From a virus: a stretch of DNA of 14,519 bases. The position numbers were made by a program, and so were the translations under genes. The notes below the pieces were generated by a model that saw nothing but the letters and a program-made list of their open reading frames with translations, was not told the origin of the DNA and ran no database searches. The stretch is from UHGV virus genome UHGV-0212075; one strand, given 5' to 3'. Shown here piece after piece: positions 3,087-14,270 of this stretch (position 1 is its first letter; every line of letters starts with the position of its first letter).

Positions 3087-4703
3087 TTACGGCATACTCA
3101 TCAGCAGATCTTCTTCTCCGTGCCCGGCAGCTCCACCACCGGAAACCGCACTGGCAGCATGCTGTGCCATAAAGCGATCAAAAAGTGTTTCCTGTGACGG
3201 CTGCGATGCCGTCGGCGCGGCTGCCAGCAACGTTTTCGCCTGCGCCACTGTCATTCCCGGTTGTTCTGCCAGTGCCTGTGCAAGTTGATCGCGACCTTTC
3301 GCCTCCGGCAGCGCCATAATCTGATCGCCGACACTTGCAGAACCGGCAACCGGTGCCGCCGCCAGTAACGTTTTTGCCTGGTCAACGGTCATTCCCGGCT
3401 GTTCAGCCAGCGCCTGCGCGAGTTGTTCACGCCCTTTAGCTTCCGGCAACGCCATAATCTGATCGCCTGTGCCTGCAGCACTGGCAGCAGGGGCTGCTGC
3501 CAGAAACGCTTTCGCCTGCTCCACCGTCATCCCCGGTTGACCTGCCAGCATCTGTGCCAGTTGCTCACGCCCCTTTGCTTCCGGCAGCGCCATAATCTGA
3601 TCACCCGTGCTGTCAGTACCGGCAACCGGCGCAGCTGCCAGCAACGTTTTCGCCTGCTCAACCGTCATTCCAGGCTGACCTGCCAGCATTTGCGCCAGTT
3701 GCTCGCGCCCTTTCGCCTCCTGACAATTCAGGATCCCCATCACGCGCTGATTTTCCTGGGCCACCGCTTCAGCAACGGTGAGATTTTTAACAGTCATTGC
3801 ATTCTCCTTCGTAACAGAGTCATTCAGTGCAGAAACCATTACATCAACGGCATCTGCAGCATTAATCAGTTGATCAGCCAGGCCTGTATCAATGCCTGCC
3901 TGACCGTCATAAACGGCAGCCTCGGTATTCATCACCACCTCTGAACTCAGCCCCGTATAAAGTGCCACCTTGTCGACAAACATCCGGCGGGCCTCATCAA
4001 TACGGCGCTGAAAATCCGCACGCACACCTGCCGGCAATGCCTGAATACTGTTGCCGTCAACCTTGTGCTGCCCGGAGTAAATCAGCGTGATATCCACCCC
4101 TTCCTGTGCCAGTTGTTTCTCGTAACTGGTGTGCGCCATCATCACACCAATCGAACCAATTTTTGCCGTCTGCGTGACCAGCCGACGCGTACAGGCTGCC
4201 GCCAGCAACATGGCGGCTGAACAGGCCATATCATTACACAGCGCCCACACGGGCTTCTGTTCCCGCAGGCGGTAAATCATGTCAGCACAGTCAAACGCCC
4301 CGGCAGCCTGACCGCCCGGGCTGTCGATATCCAGCAAAATGCCGCGCACATCCGGGTCATTCACCGCCATCTGAAGACGGGCTGTCAGGCCGTCATAGCC
4401 TGTCATGCCGGAGTAAGGGCGCAGGGTACCCAGTTTATGCACCAGCGTGCCGCTCACCGGCAGAATGGCGATGCCATTCTTCACCTGGTAACTCTTTACC
4501 GGGCGCTGACCGCCCGCCATATAGTCAGTCACAGCCAGTTGCATACCATCAGCATCAAGCTGAACAGCCTGCTGAGGAACGGCAAGGCTGCCGGCCCCCA
4601 TCTCTTTACCCAGCGCGCAAAAGAAAACCCGCGCATAGGCGGGCTCCAGTAAAAGCGGTTCATTAAATGCCATGGCGGCAATATGTGATAAATTACGACG
4701 CAT
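3087..4703 (-). CDS. C: prohead protease / scaffold, lambda gpC-like (ClpP/S49-type peptidase with C-terminal Nu3-like scaffold region)
   Basis: 538 aa; ATG at 4703 overlaps the B stop by 11 nt. N-terminus ...HIAAMAFNEPLLLEPAYARVFFCAL and core ...YSGMTGY...DSPGG...KPVWALCNDMACSA...LVTQTAKIGSIGVMM...LIYSGQHKVDGN match lambda C. The C-terminal region holds four tandem ~46-aa units related to the single MGILNCEEAHGRE... segment of lambda C/Nu3. Confidence 0.9.
   Translation of the reverse strand: MRRNLSHIAAMAFNEPLLLEPAYARVFFCALGKEMGAGSLAVPQQAVQLDADGMQLAVTDYMAGGQRPVKSYQVKNGIAILPVSGTLVHKLGTLRPYSGMTGYDGLTARLQMAVNDPDVRGILLDIDSPGGQAAGAFDCADMIYRLREQKPVWALCNDMACSAAMLLAAACTRRLVTQTAKIGSIGVMMAHTSYEKQLAQEGVDITLIYSGQHKVDGNSIQALPAGVRADFQRRIDEARRMFVDKVALYTGLSSEVVMNTEAAVYDGQAGIDTGLADQLINAADAVDVMVSALNDSVTKENAMTVKNLTVAEAVAQENQRVMGILNCQEAKGREQLAQMLAGQPGMTVEQAKTLLAAAPVAGTDSTGDQIMALPEAKGREQLAQMLAGQPGMTVEQAKAFLAAAPAASAAGTGDQIMALPEAKGREQLAQALAEQPGMTVDQAKTLLAAAPVAGSASVGDQIMALPEAKGRDQLAQALAEQPGMTVAQAKTLLAAAPTASQPSQETLFDRFMAQHAASAVSGGGAAGHGEEDLLMSMP
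3175..3726 (-). repeat. in-frame tandem repeat, period 138 bp (46 aa), ~4 copies, in the 3' part of the C gene
   Basis: The string gccataatct recurs at plus 3313, 3451 and 3589 (spacing exactly 138), with a degenerate copy near 3175. Protein units ALPEAKGREQLAQ(M/A)LA(G/E)QPGMTV(E/D/A)QAK(T/A)(L/F)LAAAP... repeat four times. Confidence 0.85.
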
Positions 4704-6264
4704 CGCCTTTTTCTCCCGTTGTCTGTCGGATCTGCTGCTGAAACGTATCCTTTATCCAGATGGGGCGGGGAAGACCAGCCGCCTGTCGCTCCTGGCTTTC
4801 ACGCAGTTGCTGGCGGAAAATCTCCTGATAGTCATCGCCCATCAGGGCCAGCTCCTTCTCGTACGTGCTCAGGCCACCTTCAATACGCATCACCGCCTCC
4901 TGCACCTCCTTAAGGCCATCAATCGCCATGCGACCGGCACCAATCCACTCGGCACGACACCACCCGGAACGGGCCTCCCAGAATGAGAAACGGGATTTCG
5001 GTGGGCGGATCACACCGCGAATAAGGGCTTCCTCCAGCCAGCAGGCAAACATCTGTGACGCCAGTCGGCTGGCCACAAATTTTCGTTTCCCCATAAAATA
5101 CCGCCACGACTCATTGGCGGATGCTCTGGCACTGGAATAACTGACCTGTGAATAATCGCGGGAAAGCTGCTCATAGGACACGCCCAGTCCGGCAGCGATG
5201 TAACGTAACAGCGCCTTTTCCAGTTCAGAAAAACCATTATCCGCATTCTGTGCTGTCTGCAGATTCAGTGAATCCCCCGGATAAAGATGCGGAATACGAA
5301 CCCCACCCATCTTTACCGTATTGGTGGCGTAATAGCGCGCATAGCCTTTCATGATGGTGTTCAGGGGATTTTTACCGCCATCTCCCACCCCGGCGATATA
5401 TTCAAATGCTTTTTCCGAATCCAGTGTGGATTCAATCGTGGCGGCATACATCGCCCGCACCACCGCCGACTGCAGTTGCGTGGCCTGTAGTGTGTCGAGC
5501 ATCTTGAGGCGCTCCATCACGGAATAAAACTGGTTGGCCCCGCGCGTCTGTCCGTCCTCCTGCGGCTGAAACACATGGATCATTCCCGGTCGCCCGGAGG
5601 GCAGCGTCGCCGCAATCCGTGTCCAGTTGCTGACACCGTAGCCAGGCCAGTCATCGTCCTGAACATGATAAGCCATCGCCTTTCCGTGACGGTTGATTTC
5701 CACTCCGGCACGCATAAAACGATCGCCGATGCCATAACCGGGCGTGCTGACGCGCTTCGGACTGATGGTCTTGAATTTTGTTCTGAATAATGACGTGGAT
5801 TCCGTATCCCATACGGGCTGGACAAAAATTTCACCGTTAAAAGTATGGACCCCCACCCCTTCACGAATAAATTCGGTAAACGAGCGACGCCCTTCCACAT
5901 CCATCGAACCAAATACCGGATCGCAATATTCCATCCACGCCACCTCAACATCTTCAATAAAAGCATGTGAATCTGCTTCCGACATCCCCAGCCAGCGCCA
6001 GTTGGGACGGTAACTCAGACGAAACATGTGCCCGACAATATGATCCTTATGAATTTCCACTGCATTCGATGCAATACCGTTGTTACGGACCAGATCATCC
6101 GCGCGGGCGTTACCCAGATGAATGGAAGGTAAGAGCGCCACGTCGGCACTTTCCGGTGCAGGCAGCCATTCTGCCATTTGCCCACCGAACCCGGAACCAC
6201 CACCAGAATATCCCATGCTTTGCCGTAAAGGCTGCCCATGAATATCCACCAGTTCCCCGTTCAC
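4693..6264 (-). CDS. B: portal protein, lambda gpB-like
   Basis: 523 aa with extensive similarity to lambda B (GGGSGFGGQ, NARADDLVRNNG, VFQPQEDGQTRGAN.FYSVME.LKMLDTLQ.TQLQSA, SLNLQTAQ, LLRYIAAGLGVSYEQLSR, IDGLKEVQEAVM). The first in-frame start is GTG at 6264, overlapping the W stop (GTGA); an internal ATG (MGYSGGG...) at 6216 is an alternative. Confidence 0.88.
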   Translation of the reverse strand: MNGELVDIHGQPLRQSMGYSGGGSGFGGQMAEWLPAPESADVALLPSIHLGNARADDLVRNNGIASNAVEIHKDHIVGHMFRLSYRPNWRWLGMSEADSHAFIEDVEVAWMEYCDPVFGSMDVEGRRSFTEFIREGVGVHTFNGEIFVQPVWDTESTSLFRTKFKTISPKRVSTPGYGIGDRFMRAGVEINRHGKAMAYHVQDDDWPGYGVSNWTRIAATLPSGRPGMIHVFQPQEDGQTRGANQFYSVMERLKMLDTLQATQLQSAVVRAMYAATIESTLDSEKAFEYIAGVGDGGKNPLNTIMKGYARYYATNTVKMGGVRIPHLYPGDSLNLQTAQNADNGFSELEKALLRYIAAGLGVSYEQLSRDYSQVSYSSARASANESWRYFMGKRKFVASRLASQMFACWLEEALIRGVIRPPKSRFSFWEARSGWCRAEWIGAGRMAIDGLKEVQEAVMRIEGGLSTYEKELALMGDDYQEIFRQQLRESQERQAAGLPRPIWIKDTFQQQIRQTTGEKGDAS

Positions 6265-12901: not shown

Positions 12902-12976
<75 letters not shown>

Positions 12977-12979
12977 ATA

Positions 12980-13055
<76 letters not shown>

Positions 13056-13223: not shown

Positions 13224-14270
13224 TTAACGATTATTTTTTATTTCAATTACAGTCTGGTTAAATCTCTCTTCTTCCAGTTCCACACCTATTGCACGCCTTC
13301 CCAGCGATAATGCTGCTTTTATTGTTGACCCCGACCCCATAAAAAAATCAGCGACCAAATCTCCCGGATGGCTGCTGGCGGTAATTATCTGACGCAACAT
13401 ATCCGCCGGTTTCTCACAGGGATGTTTGCCGGGGTAATACTGCACAGGCTTGTGCGTCCAGACATCCGTATACGGAACGACAGCCGATACGGAAAAATAA
13501 CGCCGCAGGGATTTGTACTCATCCAGCAGACTGGCATATTGCCGGTTCAGTTCACTGTATGTGCTGACCAGCTGGTGGTGTGGCTTTTCCAGTTCACCGC
13601 GCTGATGTTTTTCTGCTGCAACACGCGCAAACAACGCCTGTAATTTCAGATAATCGCTTTCGTTCGGCAACTGCCACTGACTGATACCAAACCAGTGCGA
13701 AGCCATGTTTTTCTTTCCGGTGGCTTCCGCTATCTGTTTTGACGTTATTCCCAGTGATTCACGCGCATCACGAAAGTAAGAAATCAGCGGGGCCATGACG
13801 TGCTGTTTTAGTTCACGCCCCTTTGCCGCATAGCCGTCATTTTTGGGCAGGTATGGCCCCTGATAATGTTCTGCAAACAGAATGCGTTCTGTTGCCGGGA
13901 AATACGTCCGCAGGCTTTCCTTGTTGCATCCGTTCCAGCGCCCGGACGGCTTCGCCCAGATAATGTGGTTCAGCACATTAAAGCGTTCACGCATCATGAT
14001 TTCGATATCAGATGCCAGGCGATGACCACAGAACAGGTAAAGACTTCCGGCAGGCTTCAGTACCCGCCAGAATTGCGCCAGACACTGGTCCAGCCATTTC
14101 AGGTAATCATCGTCGCCCTTCCACTGGTTATCCCAGCCCTCGGGCTTCACTTTAAAGTATGGCGGGTCTGTGACTATCAGATCGACAGAGTTTTCCGGTA
14201 AGGTCTGGATAAATTCCAGGCAATCAGCGTTGATTAACTCACAACTGGATATTTTTACAGTATTAATCAT
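13224..14270 (-). CDS. DNA methyltransferase, beta-class amino-methyltransferase (N6-adenine or N4-cytosine), probably an orphan phage enzyme
   Basis: 348 aa; the N-terminal ...SVDLIVTDPPY (catalytic motif IV) precedes the C-terminal ...DLVADFFMGSGST (AdoMet-binding motif I), the beta-class order, with a ~250-aa intervening region. No adjacent restriction endonuclease candidate in the window. Confidence 0.8.
   Translation of the reverse strand: MINTVKISSCELINADCLEFIQTLPENSVDLIVTDPPYFKVKPEGWDNQWKGDDDYLKWLDQCLAQFWRVLKPAGSLYLFCGHRLASDIEIMMRERFNVLNHIIWAKPSGRWNGCNKESLRTYFPATERILFAEHYQGPYLPKNDGYAAKGRELKQHVMAPLISYFRDARESLGITSKQIAEATGKKNMASHWFGISQWQLPNESDYLKLQALFARVAAEKHQRGELEKPHHQLVSTYSELNRQYASLLDEYKSLRRYFSVSAVVPYTDVWTHKPVQYYPGKHPCEKPADMLRQIITASSHPGDLVADFFMGSGSTIKAALSLGRRAIGVELEEERFNQTVIEIKNNR

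Follow-up and report, generated by a model that had tools for sequence, protein, structure and literature searches.

The stretch of DNA analysed here, hereafter the window (14,519 nucleotides of the UHGV virus genome UHGV-0212075), carries a head module recognised with Pfam as terminase A, W, portal B, C, decoration D, capsid E and FI, all encoded on the minus strand. The gene that concerns us here (3087..4703, minus strand, 538 aa) adjoins a lambda-family portal gene on one side and gpD-like and gpE-like genes on the other; it is a head maturation protease/scaffold gene, homologous to lambda C and to phage 21 gene 5, and it belongs to an enterobacterial prophage. Pfam places in it an S49 (SppA/ClpP-like) protease domain (Peptidase_S49, PF01343; 2.4e-33, 115.7 bits against a cut-off of 24.9) at 3834..4268 on the same strand (aa 146-290), PHROG 53 'head maturation protease' matches it with 3e-215, and its nucleotide sequence is 98% identical to a gene of E. 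coli 401651 that is annotated as S49 family peptidase. Both the domain and the portal and gpD-/gpE-like neighbours bear out the original prediction that this is a homolog of lambda gpC. Residues S162 and K214 are invariant in an alignment of 40 homologs, and we take them, from what is known of family S49, as the candidate catalytic Ser/Lys pair. By analogy with lambda, the product would also act as a scaffold that the protease removes at maturation (PMC3224144).

A second open reading frame, of the Nu3/gp6 scaffold type, is nested in frame within the gene (3087..3797, minus strand, 236 aa). It begins at an internal ATG (3795-3797, M303), with the Shine-Dalgarno sequence AAGGAG (3804..3809, minus strand) located 6 nt upstream, at the position of the ribosome-binding site annotated for phage 21 gene 6. 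This ATG lies 20 codons upstream of the first unit of the repeat described below, and an internal methionine is found about 20 residues before that unit in all 40 aligned homologs. Nested coding sequences are likewise annotated in lambda (nu3) and in phage 21 (gene 6). Two further PHROG families, 8399 ('head scaffolding protein') and 8940 ('capsid assembly protein'), match in four stretches apiece. Going by the sequence, the nested 236-aa product is probably expressed, and the repeat array would then be common to the protease and to the scaffold; as had been proposed, it falls within the region that the gene has in common with the nested Nu3-type product.

The C-terminal third of this 538-aa S49 protease/scaffold of the lambda gpC type contains four 46-aa modules in a row, a genuine array that is in frame throughout. 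In the DNA they appear as four 138-nt units, head to tail at 3186-3737 on the minus strand, without any indel and all in frame: unit 1 (3600..3737, aa 323-368; GILNCQEAKGREQLAQMLAGQPGMTVEQAKTLLAAAPVAGTDSTGD), unit 2 (3462..3599, aa 369-414; QIMALPEAKGREQLAQMLAGQPGMTVEQAKAFLAAAPAASAAGTGD), unit 3 (3324..3461, aa 415-460; QIMALPEAKGREQLAQALAEQPGMTVDQAKTLLAAAPVAGSASVGD) and unit 4 (3186..3323, aa 461-506; QIMALPEAKGRDQLAQALAEQPGMTVAQAKTLLAAAPTASQPSQET), followed on the same strand by a single-copy C-terminal tail (3090..3185, aa 507-538; LFDRFMAQHAASAVSGGGAAGHGEEDLLMSMP) to which the tails of lambda and phage 21 are homologous, and the first helix of which, 'FMAQH', resembles the start of a unit, 'QIMALP'. 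Tandem Repeats Finder delineates the array at 3213-3720 (period 138, 3.7 copies, 80% matches, 0% indels, score 594), a repeat search retrieves 231-nt copies spaced by exactly 138 and 138 nt, and the unit profile recovers all four units, each with E = 1e-31 to 4e-33. A two-unit super-repeat of 276 nt, at which Tandem Repeats Finder hinted, was discarded, as the pairwise identities do not alternate. The exact 138-bp period announced by the original prediction holds, with the marker GCCATAATCT found exactly at 3313, 3451 and 3589, and translation of the minus-strand gene, together with the profile matches, upholds its four in-frame units of about 46 aa. Its degenerate marker at 3175 has to be abandoned: no copy with two mismatches or fewer exists there, the closest look-alike being GCCATAAAGC at 3166, with three mismatches and an offset of 9 nt, in the segment encoding the tail helix 'FMAQH'. 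The fourth copy, which had been called degenerate, is a full unit at the protein level, and the span of 3175-3726 given to the array had the correct length of 552 nt, with boundaries displaced by some 11 nt.

Each module is predicted to consist of a short helix, a helix-loop-helix (EAKGREQLAQxLA - GQPGMT - VEQAKTLLAAAP) and a 9-aa linker made of Ala, Gly, Ser and Thr; the consensus ...EAKGRE..LA...PGMTVE.A...LAAAP is common to the units of the window and to a repeat annotated in phage 21 as Tri boxes. In a full-length model based on the 40-sequence alignment the units come out as helix-loop-helix with pLDDT 70-82 and the linkers with 49-61, the protease domain being poor and the overall pTM low, and a single-sequence model of the Nu3-like product displays the same pattern of units and linkers with poor confidence (pLDDT 56). 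The models thus predict the helical hairpin that had been expected of each unit. As for named domains, Pfam yielded only sub-threshold noise for the unit (Bac_DNA_binding, DUF732, T2SSK) and NCBIfam no relevant model; the named families matching the region are the PHROG scaffold and protease families only. Searches of solved structures returned no match by sequence, and only chance hits at E <= 10 when a profile of 38 diverse units was run against the PDB; Foldseek, used with the single-sequence model of pLDDT 56, gave no significant fold match.

The units are not recent copies. They differ more than the original prediction, which spoke of a few positions, had it: any two units are distinguished by 31-50 of their 138 nt (nucleotide identity 64-78%). 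Between-unit identity is 0.90-1.00 at codon positions 1 and 2 and 0.42-0.61 at position 3, amino acid identity in the core is 76-95%, and 27 of the 46 positions are invariant in every unit. Core dN is low (0.03-0.12) against a high dS (0.6-1.9), with dN/dS of about 0.03-0.14 between units, so that each unit is under purifying selection. The ratio and the third-position identity mark the units as old, and the claim that the array is no trivial recent duplication is sustained. In a tree of units, the first units are orthologous across lineages (unit 1 of the window clusters with the single unit of lambda and with phage 21 Tri1), and units 2-4 of the window lineage make up a clade of their own. 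Compared across loci, the units of an array resemble each other least at third positions in phage 21 and Gifsy-1 (identity 0.27-0.43), more in the window (0.49-0.59) and most at the P0043 locus (0.76-0.92), and in a gene with five units (P0001) two of the units are 100% identical across the 37-codon core. Duplication and homogenisation are recurrent, and the present array is the outcome of unit duplication and then of partial homogenisation, purifying selection at the protein level having since preserved each unit.

The closest named system is that of phage 21 (M81255; also OL657228), where portal, protease with nested scaffold frame, decoration and capsid genes follow one another in the same order, the products being labelled 'head-tail preconnector gp5/gp6' in M81255. 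The S49 domain is shared, with 68% amino acid identity over window residues 1-444 (tblastn; 73.7% at the DNA level), the internal start is M302 as compared with M303 in the window, both with a Shine-Dalgarno sequence, and a repeated module is carried at the same place. In M81255 the units within phage 21 gene 6 carry the label "Tri1/Tri/Tri3 box, function unknown"; the HMM made from the window units finds three units there (E = 2e-20, 1e-15 and 2e-13), which overlap Tri1, Tri and Tri3. The phage 21 units are spaced 50 and 47 aa apart and are mutually 46-59% identical, whereas the four units of the window follow each other at exactly 46 aa with the higher core identity given above. The copy number of three that 'Tri' conveys does not hold for the window, which has four units, and other members of its lineage have three or five. 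The array of the window is a copy-number variant of the repeat annotated in M81255. This direct precedent (phage 21 gene 5/6, three units, 'Tri boxes') had been omitted from the original prediction. A full-text literature search, the scope of which left out the original phage 21 head-gene paper, brought largely nothing on the repeat, and the precedent rests for this reason on the GenBank annotation of M81255.

Lambda C/Nu3 (J02459) has the same nested organisation of an S49 family protease and a scaffold (by tblastn, 54% identical to the window protein across residues 3-371 of the latter), with a single homologous unit at aa 363-408, ENSRIMGILNCEEAHGREEQARVLAETPGMTVKTARRILAAAP, a profile match that agrees with the original prediction in giving lambda C only one such segment. 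Its Nu3 start, M239, lies within the protease domain, and an acidic non-repeat spacer of about 60 aa precedes the unit. The four-fold expansion that had been proposed is therefore correct for the number of units and not for the length of the scaffold: since lambda Nu3 starts further upstream and includes this long spacer, the Nu3-type products measure 201 aa in lambda, 200 aa in phage 21 (gp6) and 236 aa in the window, with one, three and four units, respectively. Homologs of gpC in Gifsy-1 and other Salmonella prophages (NC_010392; proteins of about 500 aa) have three units at 46-aa spacing, strongly diverged and positionally orthologous to those of phage 21. The scaffolding protein of P22 has a C-terminal helix-turn-helix coat-binding domain in one copy and achieves valency via oligomerisation. 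The analogy with the window is functional only, in that a small helix-loop-helix sits close to the C-terminal end of a scaffold which is cleared once assembly is complete; unlike the P22 domain, the element of the window comes in several copies in cis, and the protease carries it too. We found no match to a P22-type coat-binding domain among PDB sequences, whether the query was the protein or the profile, and none with Foldseek at E <= 0.1 (model pLDDT 56).

Four units are what this prophage lineage normally carries. The gene is present in 105 of 5,426 complete E. coli genomes, and in 58 of the best 60 of these 105 the match is exactly 1,617 nt long, the other two departing from it by 1 nt. 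The concern that had been raised about slippage and assembly error is not confirmed for this array in view of this constant length; close relatives, with a capsid protein 95-97% identical, have three or five units, and show that copy number does change over evolutionary time. Of the 120 database proteins closest to the window protein, 77 have three units, the commonest number. When the Nu3 part by itself was used as query, most matches were partial proteins on short contigs, and none of them had an array exceeding four units. Further away, the unit profile, run against 1.84 billion representative proteins, matched 404 representative clusters, and one unit was found in 130 of the best 150 of these; the median distance following the last unit is 40.5 aa in full-length proteins of at least 380 aa. 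The norm across representative proteins is therefore a single unit some 40 aa from the C-terminus, and a distant one-unit homolog sits within the same gpA-gpW-portal-S49-gpD-gpE gene module. Across the 404 distant clusters, the best-conserved element is the unit and not the tail. Copy number in homologous C genes, a comparison that had been suggested, is one in lambda, three in phage 21 and Gifsy-1, three or four in E. coli relatives, and three, four or five within the lineage of the window; we saw no link between this number and the capsid protein, which has 342 aa and remains 95-97% identical across loci with three, four and five units. Lambda itself, with a major capsid protein of 341 aa of the same family, yet has one unit. 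Taking this capsid together with the near-identical ones associated with three, four and five units, valency cannot be tightly tuned, and within the range of three to five units copy number appears to be tolerated rather than critical.

What might such a module do? Our best guess is a flexible module through which the scaffold would make multivalent interactions. The modules could be independently folding interaction beads strung on flexible linkers and, with the single-copy tail, they may tether protease and scaffold inside the assembling procapsid by contacting the portal, further scaffold chains and/or the inner face of the major capsid protein; the valency or reach of a chain would grow with its number of units, and after assembly the S49 protease would degrade the whole region. 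Purified lambda gpNu3 was reportedly described, in the Journal of Molecular Biology around 2011, as largely intrinsically disordered, and if so the idea of independently folding beads is weakened. The moderate confidence of the models, with their low overall pTM, also counts against the scheme, as does the negative outcome of the sequence and fold searches for a solved coat-binding domain of any scaffold. In favour of a scaffold role, interactions of lambda Nu3 with E, B, C and Nu3 itself have been reported (PMC3224144). Taken as a whole, a genuine four-module array, duplicated and homogenised, the units of which act as interaction beads, is the explanation we favour, and we consider it reasonably probable. 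A bolder version, which we regard as rather doubtful, would have the module as an independently folding domain, the conserved 'business end' of lambda-type scaffolds and proteases, multiplied in cis to one to five copies independently by several lineages as an alternative to oligomerisation in reaching multivalent binding of the capsid; were it true, copy number would have been selected for avidity, and synonymous divergence for recombinational stability.

Other explanations have to be weighed against this one. Tandem repeats can be mis-assembled, and many partial database entries do end on very short contigs, but an expansion created by assembly hardly accords with 105 complete genomes that carry the gene at a constant length; moreover, units differing at 22-36% of their nucleotides can be placed by short reads, and artefact or collapse is effectively refuted. 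A feature that would not be that of the minus-strand protein, either a DNA-level element or the 173-aa open reading frame of the plus strand at 3423-3944, was likewise rejected, as divergence concentrates at third positions of the minus-strand frame, which rules out selection on the DNA or on the opposite frame; artefact and non-protein feature together are extremely improbable. It is scarcely more credible that the units are nucleic-acid-binding repeats of the helix-hairpin-helix kind, as in RuvA, RecR or Topo V. The only Foldseek hits, all weak (E = 0.7-9), are to proteins of this kind, these three among them, and LAxQPGMTVEQAKxLL is loosely reminiscent of that motif, with Bac_DNA_binding appearing below threshold in Pfam; but the hits are non-significant, with TM-scores <= 0.22 on a low-confidence model (pLDDT 56), Pfam gives no helix-hairpin-helix match, the units are acidic to neutral, and the scaffold is gone before DNA enters the head, a matter of established lambda biology (PMC3224144).

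An elastic filler is a more serious contender, although we still find it unlikely. The array would be a degradable, flexible spacer setting no more than the bulk or the length of the core, with specific contacts made by the tail and the first unit alone, and copy number would drift neutrally by unequal recombination. Capsid proteins that are almost the same with three, four or five units fit this scheme, as do the low complexity and low model confidence of the linkers, and the similar lengths of Nu3-type products suggest that length is conserved rather than unit number. Yet the dN/dS values and the 27 invariant positions reported above are unexpected for a pure spacer, and it is the unit, and not the tail, that is best conserved among distant clusters. 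It may also be, though this is improbable, that the array is a cleavage cassette, the unit boundaries (GDQIMALPEAKGR) being sites of the S49 protease so that pieces of about 46 aa leave the procapsid. The boundary motif DQIMALPEAKGR is near-exact in units 2-4, the array is common to the protease and its substrate, and in lambda the degradation of Nu3 ahead of packaging is ascribed to C (PMC3224144); however, the boundary of unit 1 differs (RVMGILNCQEAKGR), conservation extends beyond the boundary over the entire helix-loop-helix, and cleavage-site data for this family were not found in the literature retrieved. Such cleavage is compatible with the interaction module that we prefer.

The array is otherwise unremarkable, a variant in copy number of a feature for which the record of the phage 21 head operon has the first annotation. 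For annotators, the consequence is that 538-aa genes labelled 'S49 family peptidase' encode the protease and, as predicted from the nested start, probably a second product, and that their repeat is genuine and should not be taken for an assembly error. The lambda-type scaffold belongs to a textbook pathway of assembly, of which it is one of the least understood parts. Natural variants with one, three, four and five copies of the module, in the presence of near-identical capsid proteins, constitute a ready-made titration series, with which one could ask whether the partner of the module is the shell, the portal or the module itself, and if valency is relevant.

The repeat is real. It lies in the S49 peptidase gene (3087-4703, minus strand), which encodes a protein of 538 aa, and Tandem Repeats Finder describes it at 3213-3720 as 3.7 copies of period 138, with 80% matches and no indels; a separate repeat search of the window also gave copy spacings of exactly 138 and 138 nt. 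Read in the coding frame of the minus strand, this period resolves into four units of 46 aa: unit 1 at aa 323-368 (window 3600-3737), unit 2 at aa 369-414 (3462-3599), unit 3 at aa 415-460 (3324-3461) and unit 4 at aa 461-506 (3186-3323), 27 of the 46 positions being invariant across the four. The original prediction had followed the array with the marker GCCATAATCT, which is found exactly at 3313, 3451 and 3589, and it had placed a degenerate copy near 3175. That copy has two parts: one is a complete fourth unit, the other the helix DRFMAQH of a single-copy 32-aa tail that comes after the array, echoing with a 3-codon offset the start of a unit, DQIMALP. The feature had essentially been read correctly, and it is neither an artefact nor a recent duplication.

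The window carries the late region of a prophage, with all its genes on the minus strand. Along that strand, a DNA methylase gene and two tRNAs are followed by holins and an M15 endolysin, then by Nu1, terminase A, gpW, a lambda-family portal and the S49 peptidase gene, and finally by gpD-like decoration, gpE-like capsid, FI and FII-like genes. The portal gene (4693-6264) overlaps the protease gene by 11 nt (4693-4703), resembling the lambda B/C overlap. The FI ORF, as called mechanically (1185-1697, minus, 170 aa, starting at GTG), shares about 80 nt with the end of the capsid gene (1616-2644); because FI homologs in related loci have only 121-127 aa, translation probably starts at an internal codon. 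The adjoining tRNA-Gly(TCC) and tRNA-Thr(TGT) genes (12902-12976 and 12980-13055, minus) separate the methylase gene (13224-14270) from the lysis genes, and in the 98%-related prophage of E. coli 401651 only tRNA-Gly is annotated at this position. Heads and tails form a mosaic, one and the same type of lambda-like head module (MCP 95-97% identical) being joined to different tail genes: P2/Mu-like baseplate genes of a contractile tail in E. coli 401651 (L004, 35-6459; gpV, GPW/gp25, baseplate J-like, tail protein I), lambda-like siphovirus ones in Cronobacter (L009, 6741-7479; Minor_tail_Z, Phage_tail_U).

Pfam Peptidase_S49 matches aa 146-290 of the 538-aa protein, labelled head maturation protease by PHROGs, and the C-terminal 236 aa match the PHROGs 'head scaffolding protein' and 'capsid assembly protein', in four stretches each. 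An internal ATG (3795-3797, M303) is preceded 6 nt ahead by AAGGAG, methionine is kept at this position in 40/40 aligned homologs, and gene 6 of phage 21 is annotated as starting at the corresponding residue, with a ribosome-binding site of its own. Because of these features, and of the precedent of lambda C/Nu3, the locus most likely makes two products, a 538-aa protease and a 236-aa scaffold, both carrying the array; expression of the nested one is inferred.

Conservation acts on the protein. The window units share 64-78% of their DNA, and in their conserved core dN is 0.03-0.12 against a dS of 0.6-1.9, with identities of 0.90-1.00 at codon positions 1 and 2 and 0.42-0.61 at position 3. Purifying selection therefore acts on each unit as protein, the DNA sequence itself not being conserved. 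At the scaffold end of both products the array is a protein feature that is conserved and selected. Compared across loci, third-position identity between units is 0.27-0.43 in phage 21 and Gifsy-1, 0.49-0.59 in the window, 0.76-0.92 in the P0043 locus and 1.00 for two units of the five-unit P0001 gene. In a tree of units, the first ones are orthologous in all lineages, lambda's sole unit included. Those at positions 2-4 in the window lineage group in a clade of their own and correspond by position, as orthologs, to those of the five-unit gene. Overall, units have been duplicated and homogenised repeatedly and then retained over a long time.

Copy number varies among relatives. The 120 closest database proteins have three units in 77 cases, four in 41 and five in 3; a 492-aa E. 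coli gene, 91% identical, and a Cronobacter relative have three, and two E. coli proteins have five. E. coli, E. marmotae, E. albertii, Citrobacter and Salmonella all have the 538-aa four-unit form, whose clusters contain up to 826 sequences. The gene is present, at a coverage of at least 80%, in 105 of 5,426 complete E. coli genomes, and 58 of the 60 best E. coli matches measure exactly 1,617 nt, the remaining two being off by 1 nt. Taken with the three- and five-unit relatives, this near-constant length shows that the array is genuine and stable, yet changes over evolutionary time. Larger or hybrid rearrangements occur in the phage 21-type lineage: P0044 (657 aa) has a repeated 156-aa block, from the pre-unit leader through unit 2, and P0112/P0115 (551 aa) belong here too, P0112 having an extra chimeric unit (junction 'PGMT/EMTVEKA') suggestive of unequal recombination between the second and third units. 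The 610-aa E. coli protein P0041 begins as a C-type protein, breaks off within unit 3 (…EQPGMTV) and continues in frame into a sequence with the NCBI name 'phage baseplate assembly protein V'; either a decayed prophage would have lost its D, E, FI and FII genes by deletion, or the sequence would be misassembled. Hundreds to thousands of entries named 'S49 family peptidase, partial' (P0275, P0300, P0329, P0336, P0338, P0340 and others) sit on 0.4-2.5 kb contigs, so that contigs from short-read assembly evidently often terminate within this gene or close to it, which could be due to the array or to the presence of several similar prophages in one genome.

The module has precedents. Lambda C has exactly one unit (aa 363-408), and phage 21 gp5 and Gifsy-1 gpC have three each, as against four in the window. 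GenBank M81255, the phage 21 head operon, labels three repeat_regions of gene 6 'Tri1 box', 'Tri box' and 'Tri3 box', adding the remark 'function unknown; putative', and the unit profile matches exactly these segments. The repeated module was therefore already known, though unexplained, and the window array is a four-copy variant of it. When 1.84 billion representative proteins were searched with a profile built from the four window units, 404 clusters matched (E <= 1e-3). Among the best 150, 130 have one unit, and a median of 40.5 aa follows the last unit in full-length proteins (>= 380 aa). Conservation is higher in the consensus, ...ERxRIxxILxLPEAKGRExLAxxLAxxPGMTVExAKxxLAAAP, than in the tails downstream of it, and a distant one-unit homolog is located in the same gpA-gpW-portal-S49-gpD-gpE module. 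Multi-unit matches are mostly fragments from the phage 21, Gifsy and window lineages, with a few independent two-unit stand-alone proteins. The latter, of 163-223 aa (Bradyrhizobium locus L012, 5001-5492; also P0132 and P0238), lie in alphaproteobacterial prophage-like regions without a recognisable S49 gene nearby, and represent an independent duplication of the module outside enterobacterial lineages. Neither Pfam nor NCBIfam has a model for the unit, and sequence and profile searches of solved structures returned no relative of it.

AlphaFold2, with a 40-sequence alignment, modelled the protease domain poorly and predicted for each unit a short helix followed by a helix-loop-helix (pLDDT 70-82, against 49-61 for the linkers); a single-sequence model gave the units the same secondary structure. 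Foldseek found nothing significant in the PDB (best match E = 0.15), a few helix-hairpin-helix proteins appearing at a non-significant E of about 1-9. The units may be interaction beads joined by flexible linkers, which together with the tail would hold scaffold and protease within the procapsid and be degraded later; lambda Nu3 reportedly contacts E, B, C and itself (PMC3224144). Capsid proteins 95-97% identical, all of 342 aa, are paired with three, four or five units, and Nu3-type products are alike in length (201 aa in lambda, 200 in phage 21, 236 in the window). A range of copy numbers thus seems to be tolerated, with no tie to capsid geometry, and the main rival to interaction beads therefore stays alive, namely that the units act as a spacer or set a length. 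The conserved unit boundaries may also mark a cleavage cassette, which would be compatible with the other readings.

A Tri-box copy-number variant, common as it is in sequenced enterobacterial prophages, would be no surprise to a specialist. The remaining interest is in the module itself, for which nature provides a series of one, three, four and five copies with which it could be tested.
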